Below, piece by piece: positions 10,209-19,642 of a DNA stretch of 64,000 bases. The notes below the pieces were generated by a model, which saw only the letters and a list, made by a program, of their open reading frames with translations, had not been told where the DNA came from and did not search any database. The position numbers were made by a program, and so were the translations under genes. The DNA comes from a virus. Position 1 is the first letter of the stretch; each line of letters begins with the position of its first letter. The stretch is from positions 64,001 to 128,000 of IMG/VR virus record IMGVR_UViG_3300037485_001282. One strand, 5' to 3'.

Positions 10209-11618
10209 TTATAAACTATCTGTCAAGTCGTCCGAATCAGTCCCGCCTACATGTGGTTCTTTACTTTTAGTTGTATTTTCTTTTGGCTGACTTGATGGTC
10301 TCTGTATTAGGCTTGAATTATTACCAGCATTAATATCGTATAGTCTCATGTGTGGGTAATCGACTCCGATAGTAAATCCAGTTCCATTTTTAGAGAATCT
10401 AGATTTGGCAATGTTAAACCATACTTGATTAAGTTCTTCCATTTCTTTTGTTCTGGAAACCATAATCATCACATCTGCGGTCATTGGAATACCTAACGAG
10501 TCTGATGTTTTTTCTAATCCAATTTCAGCATCAGCATAACCACCTCTATTAACTTGGACAGCACTAAAAATTGGAATATTTAATTTTACTGCTACTGCTC
10601 TAAGTTCTTCGGCAACTGTTTTAAGTTTTCCATAAGTATTGTCCGAAAATCCCTTTCCGTTAGGGATCATTAACCCAATATAGTCTAATGCAATAAACTT
10701 TGGTTTGAATCCATTCTTTTTAACTTCAAGGTCTCTAACTAAAGATAATATTTGATTAGCATTGATCGTTGCTGGGGGATATTCCTTAATTATTAGTTGA
10801 CCAAATGGTTTCCCCTCTTCTTCAGCTAATTTCTTTCTTTCGAGAATACTCATCATTAGTCGCTCTGGATTTACATTAATATCATCCATTGCTGTGTCTG
10901 AAATATTAGCATCAATTCTAGAAGAAAGCATATCTTCGTTTATTTCTAATGATATATACAGCCCGTTTAAACCACTTTCAACATATGATTTGGTTATATG
11001 TCCCAATATTAAAGTTTTACCGACATTAGTTGCCGCGCCAAATATATTTAACGTCTTATTTCTAAACCCACCCCCAACACTTTCATCTAAAGAATAAAGA
11101 CCAGTTTTTAGGATAATATCTGGACTTTTTAATCTGTCCATTCTTTCCTTAATGTCATTAAAATAATCAGTCCCTAGTGTTTCGTCGAAGGAAACATGAG
11201 AAGCATCAATAATTTTCTTAATGGCTTCTTGCTTTTTTCCTTGATCCATTAAATCAACGCAATCTATTAAAGCTAATTCGATACGTTTAGTTTGGATATA
11301 GTCTTTTGTTATCTCAGAAAGCCAGTCATAATAATCTTCTCTATCGAATTTTATTATGCCAACATTATTTAAAAGTTCAAGACAATGAGATAGATATTCT
11401 GGTTTCTTTTCGCAAATCTGAGGAACCGCAATATCACAAAGAATGGCTAACGTTGGTCTCTTAGAATATTTTAGATAATAAAATCTAATTGCCTTGAAAA
11501 TCATATTCATAGGCACTTCTGAGAAAAATCTAGGATCCATCTTATCTACAAATCTCGATAGATAATCATCGAAAGTTATAAGACCTTTTAATATATAAAG
11601 TTCTGTTTTATCTGACAT
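10209..11618 (-). CDS. gp41: replicative DnaB-like helicase (gp41)
   Basis: ATNVGKT, ISLE, LDYIGLM, AEELRAVA, SAVQVNR and KSRF motifs. Confidence 0.95.
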   Translation of the reverse strand: MSDKTELYILKGLITFDDYLSRFVDKMDPRFFSEVPMNMIFKAIRFYYLKYSKRPTLAILCDIAVPQICEKKPEYLSHCLELLNNVGIIKFDREDYYDWLSEITKDYIQTKRIELALIDCVDLMDQGKKQEAIKKIIDASHVSFDETLGTDYFNDIKERMDRLKSPDIILKTGLYSLDESVGGGFRNKTLNIFGAATNVGKTLILGHITKSYVESGLNGLYISLEINEDMLSSRIDANISDTAMDDINVNPERLMMSILERKKLAEEEGKPFGQLIIKEYPPATINANQILSLVRDLEVKKNGFKPKFIALDYIGLMIPNGKGFSDNTYGKLKTVAEELRAVAVKLNIPIFSAVQVNRGGYADAEIGLEKTSDSLGIPMTADVMIMVSRTKEMEELNQVWFNIAKSRFSKNGTGFTIGVDYPHMRLYDINAGNNSSLIQRPSSQPKENTTKSKEPHVGGTDSDDLTDSL

Positions 11619-11628
11619 GTGTTACGGC

Positions 11629-12816
11629 TCACTTATCTGATTCTGCTGAGTCGTTAGTTTCTTCGGTGTCAGAAAGAGAAGCAATTGCCTCATCTATATC
11701 CAAAACGTTACTAAAAGCATATTTATTCTTTGCCTTTTCGTCCATTTCATTGATTATTGGTGCCCAGATTTCTTCGTTCGCTGCCAGATAAATTTGCTTC
11801 TCGAAGAAATTCTTATTTAAATGCTTAACTATCATTCCACGGGAAGATTTTTCAAAAAATCCGAAATTTAGCGCATCGTCAAGCAATCCATACCACTTAT
11901 GTAACCCAAACTTAAAGTGAACTAAAATTTCTCTGCAAGTTCCTTCGGGAACTATTCTATTCTTAGTAGTGGTTGCTTTTATAATAAAGTGAGTAGGAAT
12001 TTTTTCTGTTTCGCCGCTTGCTTGCTTAATTTCTTCTCTTCGCATAAACTTCTTCAAGTTAATAATAGTAGAGCAACAGTAGTTGAATCCTTCACCACCA
12101 GAGAAAACTTCGACAGGTGGGCAATTTGGATTAGCCCCTGGTTGATCATATGTGTGGTTAGTTATTAACATAGCAGCATTATTATATGCAACGCAATTAG
12201 TAAGAACTCTACTTGCTGCTTTTAGTTGCTTGGCTCGAAGACCCATATCCTGAGCAGTCTTTCCTTCGATAGCATCTGCCATTTCCTTCTCGGTACTTAA
12301 GTTACCGAGTGAATCGACAACAATAAACAATTTCTGATCTGGATCAATCTTATGCATTTCAGTTAAAGTATTAACTACTTGTGTCTTAAAGTCATTTACT
12401 GTATTGATTGACTTAAAAGTTACTTCATCAACATTAACACCAAGTCTAGTTAAAAAGTCTCTATCCAGAGAAGATTCAGAGTCAAACACGAAGACCATAT
12501 AGTTTTGCTTCTGTGCCTCTCTCATACAATTAGCACAAATAAAAGATTTACCAACTCCTTTTTTACCAGCCAACCCAGTTATTCGACCATGTGGAATACC
12601 TTTAAAGTAACTTCCAGAAACTAAACCATTAAGCGAATATGATCCAGTTGATATATATTCACTAATTATAGTTAGTTTGGATTCGGAAAAAATCTCAAAT
12701 CCTTGCTTCTTCCCCATAGCAGTCATAAACTTCGCTATGAGTCCTTTCTTTGATGGATTTTCCGAAGATTTACTTACTTCGGTTTCTTCTGTCACTTCTT
12801 TTATTTTTTTAGCCAC
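11629..12816 (-). CDS. uvsX: RecA-like recombinase UvsX
   Basis: STGSYSLN, GKKGVGKS, FDSE, DSLGNL, DMGLRAK, NHTY and SGG motifs. Confidence 0.93.
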   Translation of the reverse strand: MAKKIKEVTEETEVSKSSENPSKKGLIAKFMTAMGKKQGFEIFSESKLTIISEYISTGSYSLNGLVSGSYFKGIPHGRITGLAGKKGVGKSFICANCMREAQKQNYMVFVFDSESSLDRDFLTRLGVNVDEVTFKSINTVNDFKTQVVNTLTEMHKIDPDQKLFIVVDSLGNLSTEKEMADAIEGKTAQDMGLRAKQLKAASRVLTNCVAYNNAAMLITNHTYDQPGANPNCPPVEVFSGGEGFNYCCSTIINLKKFMRREEIKQASGETEKIPTHFIIKATTTKNRIVPEGTCREILVHFKFGLHKWYGLLDDALNFGFFEKSSRGMIVKHLNKNFFEKQIYLAANEEIWAPIINEMDEKAKNKYAFSNVLDIDEAIASLSDTEETNDSAESDK

Positions 12817-12881: not shown

Positions 12882-12889
12882 TATAAATA
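12882..12889 (+). promoter_or_regulatory. T4-type late promoter TATAAATA
   Basis: Exact consensus 22 nt upstream of ORF 12912; gp55 is encoded in the window. Confidence 0.8.
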
Positions 12890-12911: not shown

Positions 12912-13601
12912 ATGACACAAGAACAAATTAATGAGAGTTTAGCCAATGATATACTTCAATACGAAGAACTTAAAGAAGGTATCTTCAGTAAAATGGGAGA
13001 AATAGGCGCTGGTATCGGTGGAATATTCAGTAACATAAAGAAAAACTTTAAAGATGGACGTAGAGATAAAGTTATAAACAACTTTAAAAATGAAATGACT
13101 AAGGCAATGCAAGCCGATGATTCGAAAGTAAAAAGCTCAATCGAAACATTAAACCAAGCCTTAAATAAAAGAACAGCCGATCTTGAAAAAGTTAAACAAA
13201 ATATTCTAAAAAAATCAGCAAATGATCCACAACTCCAACAAGCACTAAAAGCAGCAATGGACCAAAATACTCAAGATATTAAAAAATTCCAAAATTCTTT
13301 AGCAACTTTCCAAAAAGCAATTACTCCACCAGCACCACAAGCAACTAAAGCACCACAAACTGCTCCAACTCAAGCACCTAAAGCAAAACCAGCTCCTAAA
13401 AACTCTGCTAAAAAGAAACCCCAAGCACCTAAAGTTCCTCCAGTTGCTCCTACTCAACCCCCAGCCGCTCCAGCACCTAAAGCACCTAAAAAATCCACTA
13501 AAAAGAAACCTAAGCCACTCCCAGAAAATAAAAAGCAAATCCTAGAAAATAGTAAGTTGATGCTAGTTTCGGTAAATAAACTCTTAAAGGATCACAAATG
13601 A
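12912..13601 (+). CDS. late protein, probable internal head protein with Pro/Ala/Lys-rich linker
   Basis: Late promoter, GGAG SD, INE/LKE/ILE protease-type sites, repeated APKAP/PQAP units. Confidence 0.6.
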   Translation: MTQEQINESLANDILQYEELKEGIFSKMGEIGAGIGGIFSNIKKNFKDGRRDKVINNFKNEMTKAMQADDSKVKSSIETLNQALNKRTADLEKVKQNILKKSANDPQLQQALKAAMDQNTQDIKKFQNSLATFQKAITPPAPQATKAPQTAPTQAPKAKPAPKNSAKKKPQAPKVPPVAPTQPPAAPAPKAPKKSTKKKPKPLPENKKQILENSKLMLVSVNKLLKDHK

Positions 13602-14050
13602 ACCCAGAAGAAAAACAAAAGTTTCTTAAAGAATCTAAAAAGATCCTCAAAGCAACTTCTAAGTTAATCGAAAATAAATTTAAAGGAACTCAAAGTTCCG
13701 ATGAAGTTCCTCCTGGTAGAAAGTCACCTAAAGTTTATGGCGATTTCACTATAAATGATGCAATACAGATAATAACTCAAATCAGAAACAAACAAGGAAA
13801 CCCCAAGGCTATAGAGAAAATTTTATATAATATTATGGACTTCTCAGTAAACGGCAACGGTAAGGTTGAGGCGCAACTGCTTAGAACAGAACTAGTTAAT
13901 ACAATAACTGAGTTTAATGCTAATTATTCTTACGCAATTTCTAAATTAACCGAATATATCAAATCAGAGGAATCTTCGAGAGATCTTGATAGCCCAGTAA
14001 CAAAAACAGATAAACGAAGATTTAAAATACCGTCTGGGCCAAGTAAATAA
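13598..14050 (+). CDS. hypothetical late protein
   Basis: ATGA overlap with the upstream gene; N-terminal FLKE/LIE motifs. Confidence 0.65.
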   Translation: MNPEEKQKFLKESKKILKATSKLIENKFKGTQSSDEVPPGRKSPKVYGDFTINDAIQIITQIRNKQGNPKAIEKILYNIMDFSVNGNGKVEAQLLRTELVNTITEFNANYSYAISKLTEYIKSEESSRDLDSPVTKTDKRRFKIPSGPSK

Positions 14051-14094
14051 AATTCGGGTTATTCGAGCATATGTAATTTTATTTCAGTAGCTTA

Positions 14095-14133
14095 TATAAA
14101 TAATATTGACTTTTTTCAAAAACAGGATATAAT
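14095..14133 (+). promoter_or_regulatory. tandem late promoter (TATAAATA 14095-14102) and sigma70-type promoter (TTGACT 14106-14111, TATAAT 14128-14133) for the tRNA operon
   Basis: Near-consensus boxes with a 16-nt spacer; the leader ATG lies 7 nt after the -10 box (leaderless geometry). Confidence 0.8.
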
Positions 14134-14140
14134 AGAAAAC

Positions 14141-14209
14141 ATGAACCAAGTACTATCATTATCATCGTCCAGTTATCTCAGTTCCTATCTCGGAACGGGG
14201 CGAGGGTAA
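14141..14209 (+). CDS. attenuator leader peptide MNQVLSLSSSSYLSSYLGTGRG
   Basis: 22-codon ORF; codons 5-17 are exclusively Leu/Ser/Tyr; followed by alternative hairpins and a terminator. Confidence 0.8.
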   Translation: MNQVLSLSSSSYLSSYLGTGRG

Positions 14210-14271
14210 TATTGTAGTTTTCTACAGTAAACTCCAAAGCCCCGAATCGAAAGACTCGGGGCTTTTTCTTT
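14165..14271 (+). promoter_or_regulatory. ribosome-dependent transcription attenuator (1:2, 2:3 and 3:4 hairpins)
   Basis: TCGTCC(14165)/GGGCGA(14198) plus GTTCC/GGAAC; antiterminator CGGGGC(14196)/GCCCCG(14239) with inner TATTGTAG/CTACAGTA; terminator GCCCCGA/TCGGGGC plus T tract. Confidence 0.8.
14236..14271 (+). terminator. intrinsic terminator of the attenuator
   Basis: AAAGCCCCGA-ATC-GAAA-GAC-TCGGGGCTTT followed by TTCTTT. Confidence 0.88.
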
Positions 14272-14297
14272 GACAAATATATAGGTTAAAATTATAT

Positions 14298-14379
14298 GGG
14301 GATGTGGCGTAATGCAGCCGCGCAAGTCTTAGGAACTTGTACCTTCCATGGTGTGTGGATTCAAGTTCCACCATCCCCA
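14298..14379 (+). tRNA. tRNA-Leu (anticodon TAG)
   Basis: Acceptor GGGGATG/CATCCCC, anticodon arm CAAGT-CTTAGGA-ACTTG, long variable arm, TTCAAGT T-loop, discriminator A, no encoded CCA. Confidence 0.92.
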
Positions 14380-14383
14380 CTAC

Positions 14384-14465
14384 GAGTATGTCCCATAGCG
14401 GCAATTGGGAGGCGCTGTAAACGCCTTGGATTTATCCTTCGAAGGTTCGATTCCTTCCATACTCA
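14384..14465 (+). tRNA. tRNA-Tyr (anticodon GTA)
   Basis: Acceptor GAGTATG/CATACTC, AGGCG-CTGTAAA-CGCCT, long variable arm, GAAGG-TTCGATT-CCTTC. Confidence 0.93.
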
Positions 14466-14470
14466 TTTTT

Positions 14471-14554
14471 GGATCGTTAAATCATCGGGGATGATCTTTG
14501 CTTGGAAAGCAAATGGAGGATAAAAACCTTGAGTTTCGACTACTCAGCGATCCG
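14471..14554 (+). tRNA. tRNA-Ser (anticodon GGA), compatible with 8/4 fold
   Basis: GGATCGTT/AGCGATCC, D stem ATCATC/GATGAT, TTTGC-TTGGAAA-GCAAA, GAGT-TTCGACT-ACTC, discriminator G. Confidence 0.85.
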
Positions 14555-14560
14555 TTATCT

Positions 14561-14641
14561 GGAAAACAAAGCAGTCAGGGATTGCCGTCGCCTCGAAAGC
14601 GAATGGACCTTCGGGTTGCGTTTCGAGTACGCTGTTTTCCG
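14561..14641 (+). tRNA. tRNA-Ser (anticodon CGA), 8/4 fold
   Basis: GGAAAACA/TGTTTTCC 8-bp acceptor, D stem GCAGTC/GATTGC, TCGC-CTCGAAA-GCGA, GCGT-TTCGAGT-ACGC, discriminator G. Confidence 0.85.
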
Positions 14642-14644
14642 TTT

Positions 14645-14728
14645 GGAATATCAACTCTACAAGGTAGAGCCTTCTTTGCTAAAGAAGTGGTGCCTAATAA
14701 GCATTTGGGGCAGTACCAAGATATTCCG
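14645..14728 (+). tRNA. tRNA-Ser (anticodon GCT), 8/4 fold with atypical T-loop
   Basis: GGAATATC/GATATTCC, D stem CTCTAC/GTAGAG, CTTCT-TTGCTAA-AGAAG, TTGG-GGCAGTA-CCAA, discriminator G. Confidence 0.8.
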
Positions 14729-14733
14729 TATTT

Positions 14734-14820
14734 GGCAAGTTAACCAGTCAGGCGATTGGCGCTGTTTTGAAAGCAGAGGGTTCCCGAATAGGGAATGGGT
14801 TTCGATTACTCAGCTTGCCG
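14734..14820 (+). tRNA. tRNA-Ser (anticodon TGA), compatible with 8/4 fold
   Basis: GGCAAGTT/AGCTTGCC, D stem CCAGTC/GATTGG, CTGT-TTTGAAA-GCAG, variable arm TTCCC/GGGAA, GGGT-TTCGATT-ACTC, discriminator G. Confidence 0.85.
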
Positions 14821-14826
14821 TTATTT

Positions 14827-15816
14827 TTAACCCCAATTAAAATGGGCTTCTATTTCACTTTCATTTAACTTAGGAACTTCCCAGTTAAGTAAGTTAAAGA
14901 ACTTTGAGAGTGGATTAAAGAAGGCTTTTTCGAATTGATGTTCTCTATCGACATATTCTTCAATATTCAATTCATTAATCCACTTTTCTTTATATGAGAT
15001 TACGTTACTATTCCAGTCTCTACCTGTTTTGGTGTGGATAAGTTTAATCTTATCGCCTTCATATATCAAATCATATTTAGTTCTTAAATCCTCGTTCTCT
15101 AATAGAACATCATTATAGAGAATACTTCCTCTAATGTGAATAGGGGTTCTGTGGAACTTTCCTTTCTCATTGAAACTATCTAGGTACTTTTTAAGATTAT
15201 TTGCTGTACTTGGAAAGGCAATATCGTCAATATCAGCAACTAAAAATTTGCTTCTAACATCTTTTAATTTACTTATAATCAACTCTCTATTAGTAGTTTT
15301 AAGCATCTCAAACAAGCAGTCTTTCATATGCTTCTTAGCTAATTTAGGAGTTGAGGATCTTACGAGTTCAATTCCAGTTGCTTTAAGTTTATCGACAGCC
15401 ATCTTAGATTCACCATCATAAACTACCCACATTATATACTTCTTTTTCTCTAGGAAAAAGGATCTTCTAGAAACTTTTTCAACTTTAAAGGAAATCTTAT
15501 TTTCCTTGCAGTTATAGCGACTTAAAGATAACGCATCCATCGAACGGTTAATAATATTCGATACAAAGGGAACTATTTCGTCGTTAATAAATTTAATGAC
15601 TGGTTCTATTTTTTCTGGGTCGGTATTATTCCGATCAGGTATATGAAGAGAATCCAGGATTTTACCTATATCGACATAAAGCGAATTATGTACTAAGATA
15701 CCATTAGCGAAAAAGGTATTTGGTGCGTCTTCCATACCTATGTCATAAACTTCTTGTTCGACTGTCCCGTCCGAAACAAGTTCGATTGATTCTATTTCAT
15801 CTATATAATAATTCAT
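14827..15816 (-). CDS. gp43: family B DNA polymerase C-terminal half carrying the split-intein C fragment (ORF track start 15828; ATG 15816 has a GAGGA SD)
   Basis: Begins with IntC (VYDIG...FFANGILVHN), then S-LYV, KKKY, GIELVRSSTP, TPIHIRG and EGDKIK polymerase motifs. Confidence 0.93.
   Translation of the reverse strand: MNYYIDEIESIELVSDGTVEQEVYDIGMEDAPNTFFANGILVHNSLYVDIGKILDSLHIPDRNNTDPEKIEPVIKFINDEIVPFVSNIINRSMDALSLSRYNCKENKISFKVEKVSRRSFFLEKKKYIMWVVYDGESKMAVDKLKATGIELVRSSTPKLAKKHMKDCLFEMLKTTNRELIISKLKDVRSKFLVADIDDIAFPSTANNLKKYLDSFNEKGKFHRTPIHIRGSILYNDVLLENEDLRTKYDLIYEGDKIKLIHTKTGRDWNSNVISYKEKWINELNIEEYVDREHQFEKAFFNPLSKFFNLLNWEVPKLNESEIEAHFNWG
15685..15816 (-). other. split intein C fragment (44 aa) of DNA polymerase; +1 residue Ser
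   Basis: Block F VYDIG and block G ILVHN followed by Ser. Confidence 0.9.
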
Positions 15817-15817
15817 T

Positions 15818-17467
15818 TTATTCCTCATTCCAAATAAATTTTATGTGTCCGCAGTCCCATACTCTTCTATAGTTATTATTAATCATATTAGAAAATTCTG
15901 TTAACGTTTCATCATAAATTGGTAATATTTTTTTTAAATTCTCTTTATAACATTTAAATCTACTTACATATATTTCTTCATCTTTAACATAAAAATAGTT
16001 TGGAGAAGATAACCCACTATGTTTAAATCCAATATTTTCAAAATTTTTGCCATCAGATAATCTAAAATCGCACACAAATAGAACCTCTCTTGGGGTGAAT
16101 TTTTCTTTAAAATAATCAAACAATATTTTTTCGCTTTTGAAAATGCTTATGTTATTTAAATTACAATATCTTGTTATCTCCCACTGGTGTTTGGTGTTTG
16201 AGCAAATACCCATTACTGATATTATCGCGTTGTTATAAAATAACCCAATTTTTATTTTTGATAATTTTACTCCATTTAAATTATTATGGGTACAAAAATT
16301 ATTAAATTCTTTATCTGAAATTTCTTTAACTACACATTCGCTCGCGTCTATAATGTTGCTGATTTTATTTAATTTATTCTTTATTATCGATTTCCAAATC
16401 TCCCTCTTCACAACATTTTTCCACTCAAATTCGAACATATGCAATAATTCTATATTTTTTTCTTTACATAATATTGTTTTATTTGCATGATAATTTTTCT
16501 CTTTTTCAGTTTCTTCTTTATTGAACGAATGCCAATAATTACCATTGAATTCAATAGCCAGATTTTTATTTGGAACAAAAATATCAATTTCTTTCGGGGG
16601 TATAATATATCGCACATTTTCTACTATCGATTCATCGAGTTCCTTGATAAAATCACATACCTCTTTTTCTTGATGTGATCTAATTTGGCTGCAATATGGA
16701 CAACCATAGCCAGATTTATGATCATTTGGCGTTTGCCAAAATGACCCATGCTCTTTACATTTTATTTCTACTTTTTCTTTAGCTGATCGGTAAACGACAA
16801 AACTATAATCATAAAGATCGCCATGTGATTTTTTAAAATCAACTATAGTTTCTTCTTGTGTTTTAAATGATCTTATGCTATTAAATTCGTTAGCGCATTT
16901 AGGGCAGCCATGTCCTAATAAGTGAATAGATGGTAATTGAAAGAATACACCGTGCTTTTTGCAGTGTATTTCTAATTTTTTGTCTTCCGTAAAGTTATTT
17001 ACGTAAGAATATAAGTTATTGTGTTTTTTATTAAGTAACTCATCCCATTTCTCGAACGAATAACTCAGCGCCTTACTAATGTTTTCTCTTTTGCATATTG
17101 GACAACCTATTCCCCTAAAATGAGGAGCAGGGGCTTGCCAAAAAGAGCCATGCTTTTTACATATTATTTCTACTTTTTCCGAACAAGATACATATTTTAC
17201 TTTTGAGTAGTCATATTTGTATTTGTGTTTTTCGTTAGATTTTTCTATAAACATTTCGTTGGTGAATGTTCTTTTAAGGGCATATGATTCTCTTCTACAA
17301 ATTGGGCACCCTAGGGTTCTACTAATATCTGCGTTTCTTTTTTTAAATTTTATACTGTGTTTATTACAAAACAGTTCTATTATTTTCTTGTCGTGGTCTA
17401 AAATTTTAATTACACTCACATGCGGCAAATGTTTTTCCACTCTAATTTTTATCTGATCAATGTTCAT
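15818..17467 (-). CDS. free-standing homing endonuclease (Zn-ribbon repeats, Vsr/PD-(D/E)xK-like core, Hef-like C-terminus)
   Basis: Repeated YDYS..CKKHGSFWQ.P..H..G.GCP.C units; KEIDIFVPNKNLAIEFNGNYWHS; ends RVWDCG; lies between the polymerase halves. Confidence 0.85.
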   Translation of the reverse strand: MNIDQIKIRVEKHLPHVSVIKILDHDKKIIELFCNKHSIKFKKRNADISRTLGCPICRRESYALKRTFTNEMFIEKSNEKHKYKYDYSKVKYVSCSEKVEIICKKHGSFWQAPAPHFRGIGCPICKRENISKALSYSFEKWDELLNKKHNNLYSYVNNFTEDKKLEIHCKKHGVFFQLPSIHLLGHGCPKCANEFNSIRSFKTQEETIVDFKKSHGDLYDYSFVVYRSAKEKVEIKCKEHGSFWQTPNDHKSGYGCPYCSQIRSHQEKEVCDFIKELDESIVENVRYIIPPKEIDIFVPNKNLAIEFNGNYWHSFNKEETEKEKNYHANKTILCKEKNIELLHMFEFEWKNVVKREIWKSIIKNKLNKISNIIDASECVVKEISDKEFNNFCTHNNLNGVKLSKIKIGLFYNNAIISVMGICSNTKHQWEITRYCNLNNISIFKSEKILFDYFKEKFTPREVLFVCDFRLSDGKNFENIGFKHSGLSSPNYFYVKDEEIYVSRFKCYKENLKKILPIYDETLTEFSNMINNNYRRVWDCGHIKFIWNEE

Positions 17468-17485
17468 AAGGTATATCCTTAATCA

Positions 17486-17493
17486 TATTTATA
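17486..17493 (-). promoter_or_regulatory. late promoter for the endonuclease within the polymerase locus
   Basis: TATAAATA on the minus strand between the polymerase-N stop and the endonuclease start. Confidence 0.75.
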
Positions 17494-17506
17494 TAAATTT
17501 TAACAT

Positions 17507-19642
17507 TTATATGACTATAATTTTATCTCCAATTTTTAGGTTATGTGATTCTTTGTTTACCATGTTACTATTGGCGTCAATAGTAATTAACGGATGATCA
17601 GATGTAACTGTAATTGTTTTTCCTGATTTCGTTTTTATCTTATATAATTTCTTTTTTGTCAGATGCTTTTCTATATATTTGACTTTGCCAGAAATTACAT
17701 TTGATATGGTCGAATCAAACATAGGTAAAAGTAAGTTATTAGGGAAAACGAATTCTCTTCCATCATAATTTTTCTTGAAATTGATTGGTTCTTCTGTTTT
17801 TAATTCGGAAAAAATATCTTCTATTGCTATGTTTCTATTTTTACCTAAGTCATTGATAACCATGGACTTAGCCACGGAATCGGTATCTGCGTATATACAA
17901 ACATCATTAACGTTAATTGCGTTGTGTCTTTTCGCTAATTCCGTATCTTTAAATTTAGTTAAAAAATAGTTCTGAACCGTATCATTTACTGTTTTCGTTA
18001 TAGATTGTCCAGTTAAAGTCACCGCCATAGCATTATCTAGGTCATAAAATCTTGAATAAGGTGTCGATAAAAACCCATAAACAGAGTTCAAAAGCAGTTT
18101 GTAGTTGATTTGACGAGCATCGTGGGCGCTATATTCTGCTTTATTATTGTTTCTTTCTGCTTCTAACATTAACTCTTTATAATATTTTCTTTTATCAAAC
18201 CATTCAGAAATAAACGAAGGAACAATACCTTTAACATCTTGGCGATAGATAGCCCCATTGCCAGCCAAGCAGAAATTCTTTGCTTTAATTAACTTTGCTA
18301 GTTCCCTTATAGAAGTTTCTATGCCACTAAAAGTTACTAAATAGTCATCTATATCTTTACCAGCGATTAACTTACGTAAATCTGGAACATATTGACCATC
18401 GACTCTTCCTATTTTAGTTTCTGGGCTAATGTTCCAACCCATCATAATAGAAGGATACAATGAAGTAGCATCGAAAGATACCGTCCATTCATGTAGTCCC
18501 TTTATAGGATCTTTAACGTAACCACCTGGAAACTTTTTAGGTTCTATGTCTCGTTTCACATCTGGAAGAACAATATTTTTCTTTGATAGTTCCGATAAGA
18601 AGGCACCATCAAGGACTCTAACAGTTTTCTGATAGAACTCGAAAGGAACTCGGCAACCATAGCAGAAACTGAAGAGAATATTTAGGAACTTCTTTTTTGC
18701 TTCTAGTTTCTTTAGGAGTCTAACGTCATGGACATTATACTCTACATATTTCTGCCAGTCGTTATTATAGAGATCAACTAGAGTTCCTGTGTATTCTAGT
18801 TTACGTTCCCCTAGTTCCTCTTCAGCAATAGAATCTAATTTCCAGCTTGGTCTAGCGGAAAAGGTATATGTTTTAAATACTTCTAACATATCAATACAAG
18901 AGATGCCAGCAATTGAATAAGTTTTCTTAATTTTTCCATTTTTCAAAGTAGTTTCTATTTCTTTAACTACTCCAATGGGACTTAAGTCACTTGCAGCGTC
19001 TTCGTGGAAGATTTTGTTAATTCTATTTACTATGTAGGGAATATCGAAAAAGTTACTATTCCAGCCACTAAGGAAATCTGGGTGACTGTTTCTAACAAAG
19101 GTCATGAATTGGTTTAGTAATTCATTTTCATTTGATATGATAGTTTTTTCGTATTTCTCGTTTGCTTCATCTAGGAAACTTGTATTAAAGTCTCTTTCAG
19201 CAAATATAAAGTATTTTTGCTGTTTAGTTGACCAAACAGTAATAATAGTTATTGGGAAGTTAGCATCTTCTGGTTTAGGGAATCCTTTTTCAGAATGCAC
19301 CTCAATATCCAATAACCATATATCGAAGTCAGGAATGGTTAGTTCCTGACCTAGATAGTGGCTAACTATAAACTTAGTTTCTAGTGGAATGTCTGATTCA
19401 AACAGTTCCATTCCACTTGCTTTAAGTCTTTCGATTTTCTTTTTATATGCGTAGATGGTATCTGTTTCTATTTTTCTTGCTGGATCACCGAAAATAGTTT
19501 TATATTCTGGATTCTTTAAGAGTTTATCTTTCAAGAAAAAGAATAGAGGAGCGGGAAGACGCTTATGAACTTTATGTCCATCTTCATATTCCCACAGATT
19601 TATTTCTGACTTTCGGTAATCAACAAAAATATTAGAATACAT
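17507..19642 (-). CDS. gp43: family B DNA polymerase N-terminal half (3'-5' exonuclease and palm) ending in the split-intein N fragment
   Basis: DIEV, GWNSNFFDIPY, YNVHD, SFDATSLYPS, KLLLNSVYG, then YADTD followed directly by intein sequence. Confidence 0.95.
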   Translation of the reverse strand: MYSNIFVDYRKSEINLWEYEDGHKVHKRLPAPLFFFLKDKLLKNPEYKTIFGDPARKIETDTIYAYKKKIERLKASGMELFESDIPLETKFIVSHYLGQELTIPDFDIWLLDIEVHSEKGFPKPEDANFPITIITVWSTKQQKYFIFAERDFNTSFLDEANEKYEKTIISNENELLNQFMTFVRNSHPDFLSGWNSNFFDIPYIVNRINKIFHEDAASDLSPIGVVKEIETTLKNGKIKKTYSIAGISCIDMLEVFKTYTFSARPSWKLDSIAEEELGERKLEYTGTLVDLYNNDWQKYVEYNVHDVRLLKKLEAKKKFLNILFSFCYGCRVPFEFYQKTVRVLDGAFLSELSKKNIVLPDVKRDIEPKKFPGGYVKDPIKGLHEWTVSFDATSLYPSIMMGWNISPETKIGRVDGQYVPDLRKLIAGKDIDDYLVTFSGIETSIRELAKLIKAKNFCLAGNGAIYRQDVKGIVPSFISEWFDKRKYYKELMLEAERNNNKAEYSAHDARQINYKLLLNSVYGFLSTPYSRFYDLDNAMAVTLTGQSITKTVNDTVQNYFLTKFKDTELAKRHNAINVNDVCIYADTDSVAKSMVINDLGKNRNIAIEDIFSELKTEEPINFKKNYDGREFVFPNNLLLPMFDSTISNVISGKVKYIEKHLTKKKLYKIKTKSGKTITVTSDHPLITIDANSNMVNKESHNLKIGDKIIVI
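17510..17878 (-). other. split intein N fragment (123 aa, Ser1, no Cys) of DNA polymerase
   Basis: Starts SVAKS right after YADTD; contains YIEKH and block B TVTSDHP; ends LKIGDKI. Confidence 0.88.

Follow-up and report, generated by a model that had tools for sequence, protein, structure and literature searches.

What decides when a phage that carries its own tRNA genes transcribes them? Discussions of phage tRNA genes usually treat them as constitutive aids to codon usage or as spares against tRNA-cleaving defences. The question is raised here by a plus-strand locus (positions 14095-14820) in a stretch of viral DNA of 64,000 nucleotides, hereafter the window, which comprises bases 64001-128000 of the IMG/VR record IMGVR_UViG_3300037485_001282 (143.7 kb, ~32% GC, estimated completeness 79%). 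In this locus, a compact element of ~200 nt containing a short open reading frame (ORF) and a set of competing hairpins precedes an operon of six tRNA genes for Leu, Tyr and Ser. We consider it rather likely that this element is a ribosome-mediated leader-peptide transcription attenuator placed before the tRNA operon. This core reading is the best supported because the geometry fits, because the codon run of the ORF goes beyond chance and because two unrelated phages share the design. The phage probably makes its Leu, Tyr and Ser tRNAs when ribosomes decode the corresponding codons slowly; if this is true, it measures decoding speed and produces tRNAs on demand.

The leader ORF and the tRNA operon

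The initial annotation of this DNA described a promoter followed by a 22-codon ORF, and both are present. The ORF called at 14141-14209 on the plus strand encodes MNQVLSLSSSSYLSSYLGTGRG. Its codons 5-17 (14153-14191) are, as that annotation claimed, four Leu, seven Ser and two Tyr codons and nothing else. These codons are the proposed stall sites, of which codons 5-14 would be productive. The 13-codon run is the longest Leu/Ser/Tyr run across the six frames of the 143.7-kb genome. A run of 13 was reached in one of 100 dinucleotide shuffles of the whole genome and in none of the 20,000 shuffles made of each of the run, the ORF and the leader, in which local composition was kept (P < 5e-5); for runs of at least 10 codons, P was no higher than 6.5e-4 in the same three sets. 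The other two frames of the leader DNA read very differently, and therefore the signal is frame-specific, as a coding sequence should be.

The operon lies downstream on the same strand. ARAGORN called five of its genes, namely tRNA-Leu(TAG) at 14298-14380, tRNA-Tyr(GTA) at 14384-14465, tRNA-Ser(GGA) at 14471-14554, tRNA-Ser(CGA) at 14561-14641 and tRNA-Ser(TGA) at 14734-14820. The Rfam tRNA model matched the Leu and Tyr genes only and missed all four Ser genes. The remaining member, a candidate tRNA-Ser(GCT) at 14645-14728 that had initially been listed on an equal footing with the others, was not called by ARAGORN, even with lowered thresholds, nor by Rfam, and was recognized from the consensus fold of the paralogs. 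The four Ser genes share an 8/4 cloverleaf with an 8-bp acceptor stem, a 6-bp D stem with a loop of 3-4 nt (the long D stem is seen, for example, in the GGA gene), a long variable arm and a 4-bp T stem; 20 of the 28 pairs of this consensus fold are maintained through changes on both sides. This shared cloverleaf with its two-sided changes supports Ser(GCT) as a sixth gene, on a structural argument only, and its T loop is non-canonical, without the usual TTCRA. In their 8/4 fold, 6-bp D stem and 3-4-nt loop, the Ser tRNAs of the operon are like tRNA-Sec and allo-tRNA. Together, the four Ser genes cover the six Ser codons. A search with the Ser block found no phage homologue.

The amino acids of the leader run are exactly the three of the downstream tRNAs, and all six anticodons of the operon have a cognate codon in the leader. 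The claim that the leader codons mirror the tRNAs holds to this extent, and the leader shows the enrichment in codons of the sensed amino acids that characterizes the attenuator class. The initial annotation also pointed to the four consecutive codons TCA-TCG-TCC-AGT, which cover the four Ser anticodons. The series is present, but arithmetic from the codon list gives P ~0.05 for four Ser classes in four consecutive codons, which is not significant alone; the enrichment of rare codons is likewise not significant by itself.

Complementarity of the leader codons to six of six anticodons would also be expected of a direct tRNA sensor that works without the ribosome, the leader codons pairing with anticodons in the manner of a T-box. 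In the T-box, as in the attenuator proposed here, tRNA status governs a switch between terminator and antiterminator, but the T-box binds uncharged tRNA without a ribosome. We regard such a sensor as extremely improbable here. The T-box covariance model of Rfam had no match at E ≤ 10 in 13900-15000, no other riboswitch matched at this threshold, no T-box-like acceptor-end bulge was seen, and the 13 contiguous in-frame codons between an ATG and a stop indicate translation.

Promoters, hairpins and switch geometry

Two plus-strand promoters precede the leader ORF. The first is the motif TATAAATA at 14095-14102, of T4 late type, which was identified by its recurrence upstream of ORFs: the window has 19 copies (e.g., at 12882, 23005, 33529, 37273, 44442 and 53677), of which ~15 immediately precede an ORF that runs in the same direction. 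It stands 5-32 nt before most plus-strand ORF starts of the window's second half. To judge from this distribution, this phage uses the motif as a late promoter of T4 type, and transcription from it would yield an A-rich 5′ untranslated region (UTR) of ~32 nt for the leader ORF. The second, TTGACT-16-TATAAT at 14106-14133, is a sigma70-like promoter that agrees with the consensus at 11 of 12 positions and was joint best among the 34 promoter-like sites of a 7-kb scan; its predicted start, ~14139-14141, falls at the ATG or 1-2 nt before it. The promoter scan found no usable promoter between the terminator described below and tRNA-Leu, and therefore the tRNAs depend on read-through. The weak TTGACA at 14270, which the initial annotation had mentioned with regard to a possible promoter downstream of the terminator, does not serve: no acceptable -10 accompanies it, and transcription from there would begin inside tRNA-Leu.

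The longer transcript that would start at the late motif has an additional pairing. Positions 14133-14140, just before the leader ATG, are perfectly complementary over 8 nt to positions 14218-14225 of a small hairpin farther downstream, and the longer transcript, in its structure of minimum free energy, contains this pairing, which could block initiation or set its timing.

The mutually exclusive hairpins 1:2, 2:3 and 3:4 of the initial annotation, with the T tract behind them, were found by folding, with energies of -16.6, -24.1 and -18.8 kcal/mol, respectively. Segment 1 (14158-14170), which lies within the Ser/Leu codons, is the 5′ arm of the 1:2 hairpin and pairs with 14198-14210; the hairpin spans codons 6-10 and the stop codon and encloses an inner hairpin, GTTCC/GGAAC, at 14181-14196. 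Segment 2 (14196-14210) contains the stop codon (14207-14209) and pairs with either segment 1 or segment 3. In the 2:3 antiterminator, 14196-14201 pairs with 14239-14244, and a small hairpin of 7-8 bp at 14211-14229 (-7.3 kcal/mol; 8 bp in the antiterminator) is stacked within. Segment 3 (14236-14245) is the 5′ arm of the terminator and has segment 2 as its alternative partner. In the 3:4 terminator, it pairs with 14256-14265, forming a stem whose inner part is capped by GAAA; segment 4 and the T tract that follows it occupy 14256-14271. All of these segments are on the plus strand. The antiterminator rests on a perfect copy, within segment 2, of a GC-only 6-mer of the terminator 3′ arm; the genome as a whole has 32% GC.

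The fold of 14139-14272 consists of the 1:2 hairpin, the small hairpin and the terminator and has an energy of -41.9 kcal/mol (z = -4.9); none of 200 shuffles was as stable. When the nascent RNA extends only to 14246-14250, it folds most stably as the 2:3 antiterminator, at -28.3 kcal/mol versus -22.6 kcal/mol for the 1:2 state. As in the attenuator class generally, an intrinsic terminator stands ahead of the first regulated gene, the antiterminator and the terminator exclude each other, and the anti-antiterminator overlaps the leader codons.

The stall geometry was computed with the usual ribosome footprint, which extends ~12 nt upstream of the P site and 15 nt downstream of it. With the A site on any of codons 5-14, segment 1 is covered and segment 2 is free, and a ribosome on the stop codon covers segment 2. 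We infer that the ORF is translated, that translation is coupled to the polymerase and that the following regulatory outcome results. Transcription would begin at the late motif (14095), at the sigma70-like promoter (14106) or at both, and a ribosome would translate the 22-codon leader while RNA polymerase proceeds. When Leu, Ser and Tyr codons are decoded fast, the ribosome would reach the stop codon and cover segment 2, the 3:4 hairpin would form, and transcription would terminate at ~14270. When the ribosome stalls on codons 5-14, segment 1 would be covered and segment 2 left free to pair with segment 3, no terminator would form, and the six tRNAs would be transcribed. The new tRNAs would then relieve the stall, which would close a negative feedback loop.

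Independent analogues and contrary evidence

The initial annotation suggested a search of related phages for leader ORFs whose codons co-vary with the tRNA content; two analogues of unrelated sequence were found. One emerged from a survey of 118 IMG/VR loci with tRNA-Tyr, comprising 471 and 433 tRNA upstream gaps under two definitions, in which short ORFs or codon runs were scored against the identities of the downstream tRNAs, with the antisense strand and random amino-acid sets as controls. A single locus, L096, was an outlier with a score of 7.0 versus an antisense maximum of 5.0; the window locus scores 7.9 on the same scale. A scan for homologous leaders by shared motifs returned chance hits and L096 only. 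The L096 leader ORF (MKTLFSSYLLSLSLLSQGT; L096 369-428, element 369-515) has 19 codons, 13 consecutive ones being Leu, Phe, Ser or Tyr codons, and it has a 5′ UTR. Behind it come a strong terminator and then three Ser, four Leu and two Phe tRNAs and one Tyr tRNA. All 10 tRNAs have a cognate codon in the leader, one Phe codon serving for the two Phe tRNAs. In the fold of this locus, the ORF's first half is base-paired to the sequence around the stop codon, and the two flank an inner hairpin; masking of the 5′ part releases a segment that then pairs with the terminator 5′ arm. The Ser tRNAs of L096 are canonical and were found by standard tools. A search by neighbouring gene found no relatives of L096. 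Its contig of 94 kb is 19% complete according to CheckV, which implies a very large phage, and the same contig carries a solitary tRNA of amber suppressor type, with the anticodon CTA (L194 558-632; G005:C1:30858-30930).

The other analogue is in LR756511.1, an uncultured 595-kb phage in GenBank, of which we analysed positions 430778-439102 as the reverse complement (L195). Its leader ORF (L195 1402-1485, element 1402-1582) has 27 codons, a GTG start and a 12-codon Leu/Ser/Tyr run; it has a 5′ UTR, and AAGGA, a proper ribosome-binding site, lies 9 nt upstream of the GTG. The hairpin logic is the same as that of the window, with a strong terminator. The array behind it (L195 1583-4706) consists of 11 tRNAs, four for Ser, five for Leu and two for Tyr only, and lies ~140 kb from the phage's other ~50 tRNAs. 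The Ser tRNAs of this array were found by standard tools and thus do not have the 8/4 peculiarity of those in the window. A Met-rich ORF near other tRNAs of LR756511.1 was considered as a further leader and rejected, since it sits inside a protein gene.

No convincing homology links the three leaders at the DNA level. What they have in common is the design, together with a short stretch of Ser-Ser-Tyr(-Leu) and a tail rich in Gly, Thr and Arg, from which segment 2 is formed. In all three loci, a strong intrinsic terminator is accompanied by a competing antiterminator, and the composition of the leader matches the identities of the tRNAs behind the terminator. A broader claim can be put on this basis: that phages autoregulate their tRNA supply by a ribosome-speed sensor, that such sensors make up a class which recurs in T4-like and huge phages and goes with Leu/Ser/Tyr (long-variable-arm) arrays, and that this would be the first known case of leader-peptide attenuation at tRNA genes. 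We hold the case for this claim to be evenly balanced. Arrays made up of long-variable-arm tRNAs only seem to be recurrent in large phages, and the question arises why the Leu, Ser and Tyr tRNAs, all of which have long variable arms, are so regulated.

A further likeness between the window and LR756511.1 bears on what the leader controls. The 10-mer TCTTTGACAA directly follows the terminator T tract in both (L195 1557-1566 in the latter); in the window, it is part of a plus-strand 11-mer at 14266-14276 that resembles the consensus of the rrn boxA, an antitermination signal bound by NusB/NusE, and whose function would be putative. With the first tRNA starting 17-22 nt farther on, the 10-mer cannot act as a -35 for the tRNA genes. 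Together with the codon match, which is real, and the capacity of the 5′ UTR of the longer transcript to pair with 14218-14225, this motif would suit a leader whose codons are translated and fit the tRNAs but whose output is precursor processing, stability or Rho access, or in which the boxA-like element is the real control point. The motif alone is within chance, with one match versus 0.52 expected per window, and a canonical intrinsic terminator with a competing antiterminator in three loci makes control of termination the simplest reading. We give little credence to an output other than termination.

The composition of the arrays also bears on why an attenuator should have evolved. The initial annotation linked the locus to tRNA nucleases of the PrrC, PARIS and retron types, a speculation for which we found no support in the sequence. 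Under this explanation, the attenuator evolved to detect the cleavage of host Leu, Ser and Tyr tRNAs by an anti-phage nuclease and to replace them. The unusual 8/4 fold of the four Ser tRNAs, which could evade a nuclease, and the long-variable-arm-only arrays of the window and LR756511.1 are compatible with such a role. However, nothing in the window indicates a nuclease or its target, the Ser tRNAs of L096 have the canonical fold, and a simpler reason is available on the side of demand, in late Ser-rich proteins and the late promoter. A counter-defence sensor thus seems quite improbable.

Outside the window, the same genome has two adjacent large ORFs (G000:C1:136766-141352) with 26.5% and 17% Ser, with long poly-Ser/Asn tracts and with all six Ser codons. 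These Ser-rich ORFs, taken with the late promoter motif, are a possible demand-side reason for the operon, namely a heavy late need for Ser tRNAs. An origin of the leader as a fragment copied from the Ser-rich genes is rejected, since it has no DNA similarity to them.

A number of observations weigh against the attenuator. Its weakest point is the start of translation. Genes of this phage have a Shine-Dalgarno sequence, AAGGA, at -11 to -7, with a G peak at -9/-8, whereas the leader ORF has none in this interval and AGGA occurs only at -17 to -14; furthermore, an mRNA from the sigma70-like promoter would be leaderless or nearly so. Leaderless stall-sensing ORFs exist in mycobacteria. Within the switch, the antiterminator is the minimum free energy structure of the nascent RNA to 14250, but masking of segments, as the initial annotation had proposed, leaves the terminator in the minimum free energy fold of the complete RNA whichever 5′ part is masked. 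The switch must therefore be kinetic, as in trp. The comparison with trp, his and thr attenuators is sustained by the geometry, the codon run and the two analogues, but stalls at codons 15-17 would mask segment 2, and thus not all 13 codons are productive sensors. The match between codons and tRNAs is also imperfect: no tRNA of the operon reads the leader codon TTA, and CTC, which occurs twice, is read only with four-way wobble of U34 in Leu(UAG).

The remaining contrary points are comparative. In the survey, matched leaders were equally frequent on the sense and antisense strands and at or below the expectation from random amino-acid sets; nine further loci had no codon-matched leader. Codon-matched leaders are rare and are not a general property of phage tRNA arrays. 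The 44 other tRNAs of LR756511.1 that were examined have promoters but no such leader. The phages nearest to this one by polymerase (L002-L005, 55-61% identity) have zero tRNAs. We found no relative of the leader or the array in GenBank phages, IMG/VR or JGI metagenomes, which leaves the locus itself without support from conservation or covariation. Specifically, blastn of 13500-15500 against GenBank phages gave no match, and the leader alone gave terminator-like fragments only; pattern scans of IMG/VR gave unrelated tandem terminators only for the leader switch and nothing for the 3′ end of tRNA-Leu; and scans of JGI metagenomes for the leader switch and for tRNA-Leu gave nothing. Jumbo phages with look-alikes of the tRNA-Leu and tRNA-Tyr (fHe-Yen9-04, Viktualia and RsoM2USA) have no comparable leader context.

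Some of these points would be accounted for by a leaky terminator or a small non-coding RNA (~14140-14270) with unregulated read-through, in which case the ORF would be coincidental. The lack of a Shine-Dalgarno sequence at a working distance, the constant presence of the terminator in the full-length fold and the lack of conserved relatives all suit this explanation, as does a sub-threshold resemblance in Rfam to terminator-bearing small RNAs (Yfr10, 28.4 bits versus a gathering score of 43). Nevertheless, we think it unlikely. A coincidental ORF would have to contain a codon run with P < 5e-5 given the local composition that matches the amino acids of the operon, a perfect 6-bp GC copy of the terminator 3′ arm would have to stand upstream by accident in a genome this poor in GC, and the combination of ORF and switch, in unrelated sequence, recurs before Leu/Ser/Tyr arrays in two other phages.

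Known systems and genome setting

Leader-peptide attenuation is a textbook mechanism, represented by the trp, his, thr, ilv and pheST leaders. What is new in the attenuator proposed here is its target, the tRNA genes, and its setting in phages; the type of mechanism is known. Full-text literature searches found no paper on leader-peptide attenuation of tRNA genes, in agreement with the remark of the initial annotation that no described attenuator of phage tRNA genes was known to it. If the reading is true, it extends leader-peptide attenuation to tRNA itself, which is the shortest possible feedback loop.

The closest likeness in architecture is to leaders that sense several amino acids. The leaders thrL (Thr, Ile) and ilvL/ivbL (Ile, Leu, Val) share with the window element a multi-amino-acid leader ORF, the 1:2, 2:3 and 3:4 hairpins, a stop codon adjoining segment 2 and, upstream of the first gene under control, an intrinsic terminator. 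They control biosynthetic enzymes, whereas the window element is phage-borne and controls six tRNAs, the product acting directly on the sensor. The genes regulated by the known class are for amino-acid biosynthesis or synthetases; the six tRNAs downstream of this leader are neither. The element does not belong to any of the Rfam leader families, the Thr_leader family giving 18.2 bits versus a gathering score of 55 (E = 1.4).

In pheM-pheST of Escherichia coli, the leader peptide senses the supply of charged tRNA for a single amino acid and controls an aminoacyl-tRNA synthetase. This system and the window element are alike in having a leader that senses charged tRNA over a gene of the translation apparatus, but pheST encodes a synthetase and answers to one amino acid, and its targets are not tRNA genes. 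Mycobacteria reportedly use leaderless polycysteine short ORFs as attenuators. The likeness here lies in a short ORF, leaderless or nearly so and enriched in one type of codon, that serves to sense stalls; the two differ in organism, amino acid and target genes, and the mycobacterial ORFs do not use the classical three-hairpin terminator switch.

By gene content, the record is T4-like, with a DnaB/gp41-type helicase (10209-11618), UvsX (11629-12816) and a family-B DNA polymerase whose gene is interrupted by that of an HNH endonuclease (14827-19642), all on the minus strand. The leader and the tRNA genes lie on the plus strand between two small plus-strand ORFs (12912-14050), which have no PHROG match, and the convergent polymerase gene. 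The upstream ORF of 150 amino acids has no relative in IMG/VR. In L002, whose polymerase is 61% identical, the gene order, judged by ORF sizes, is polymerase, one opposite-strand ORF, an ORF of UvsX size and an ORF of helicase size, and this order leaves no room for tRNAs. With no tRNA space in that gene order, the 150-amino-acid ORF, the leader and the tRNA array look like an insertion in this phage, and the leader and array appear to have been carried in with their own promoters.

The split polymerase consists of ORFs of 333 and 711 amino acids with a gene for an HNH/homing endonuclease of 549 amino acids between them. In the relatives L002 and L005, the polymerase is a single unsplit gene of 871-875 amino acids.

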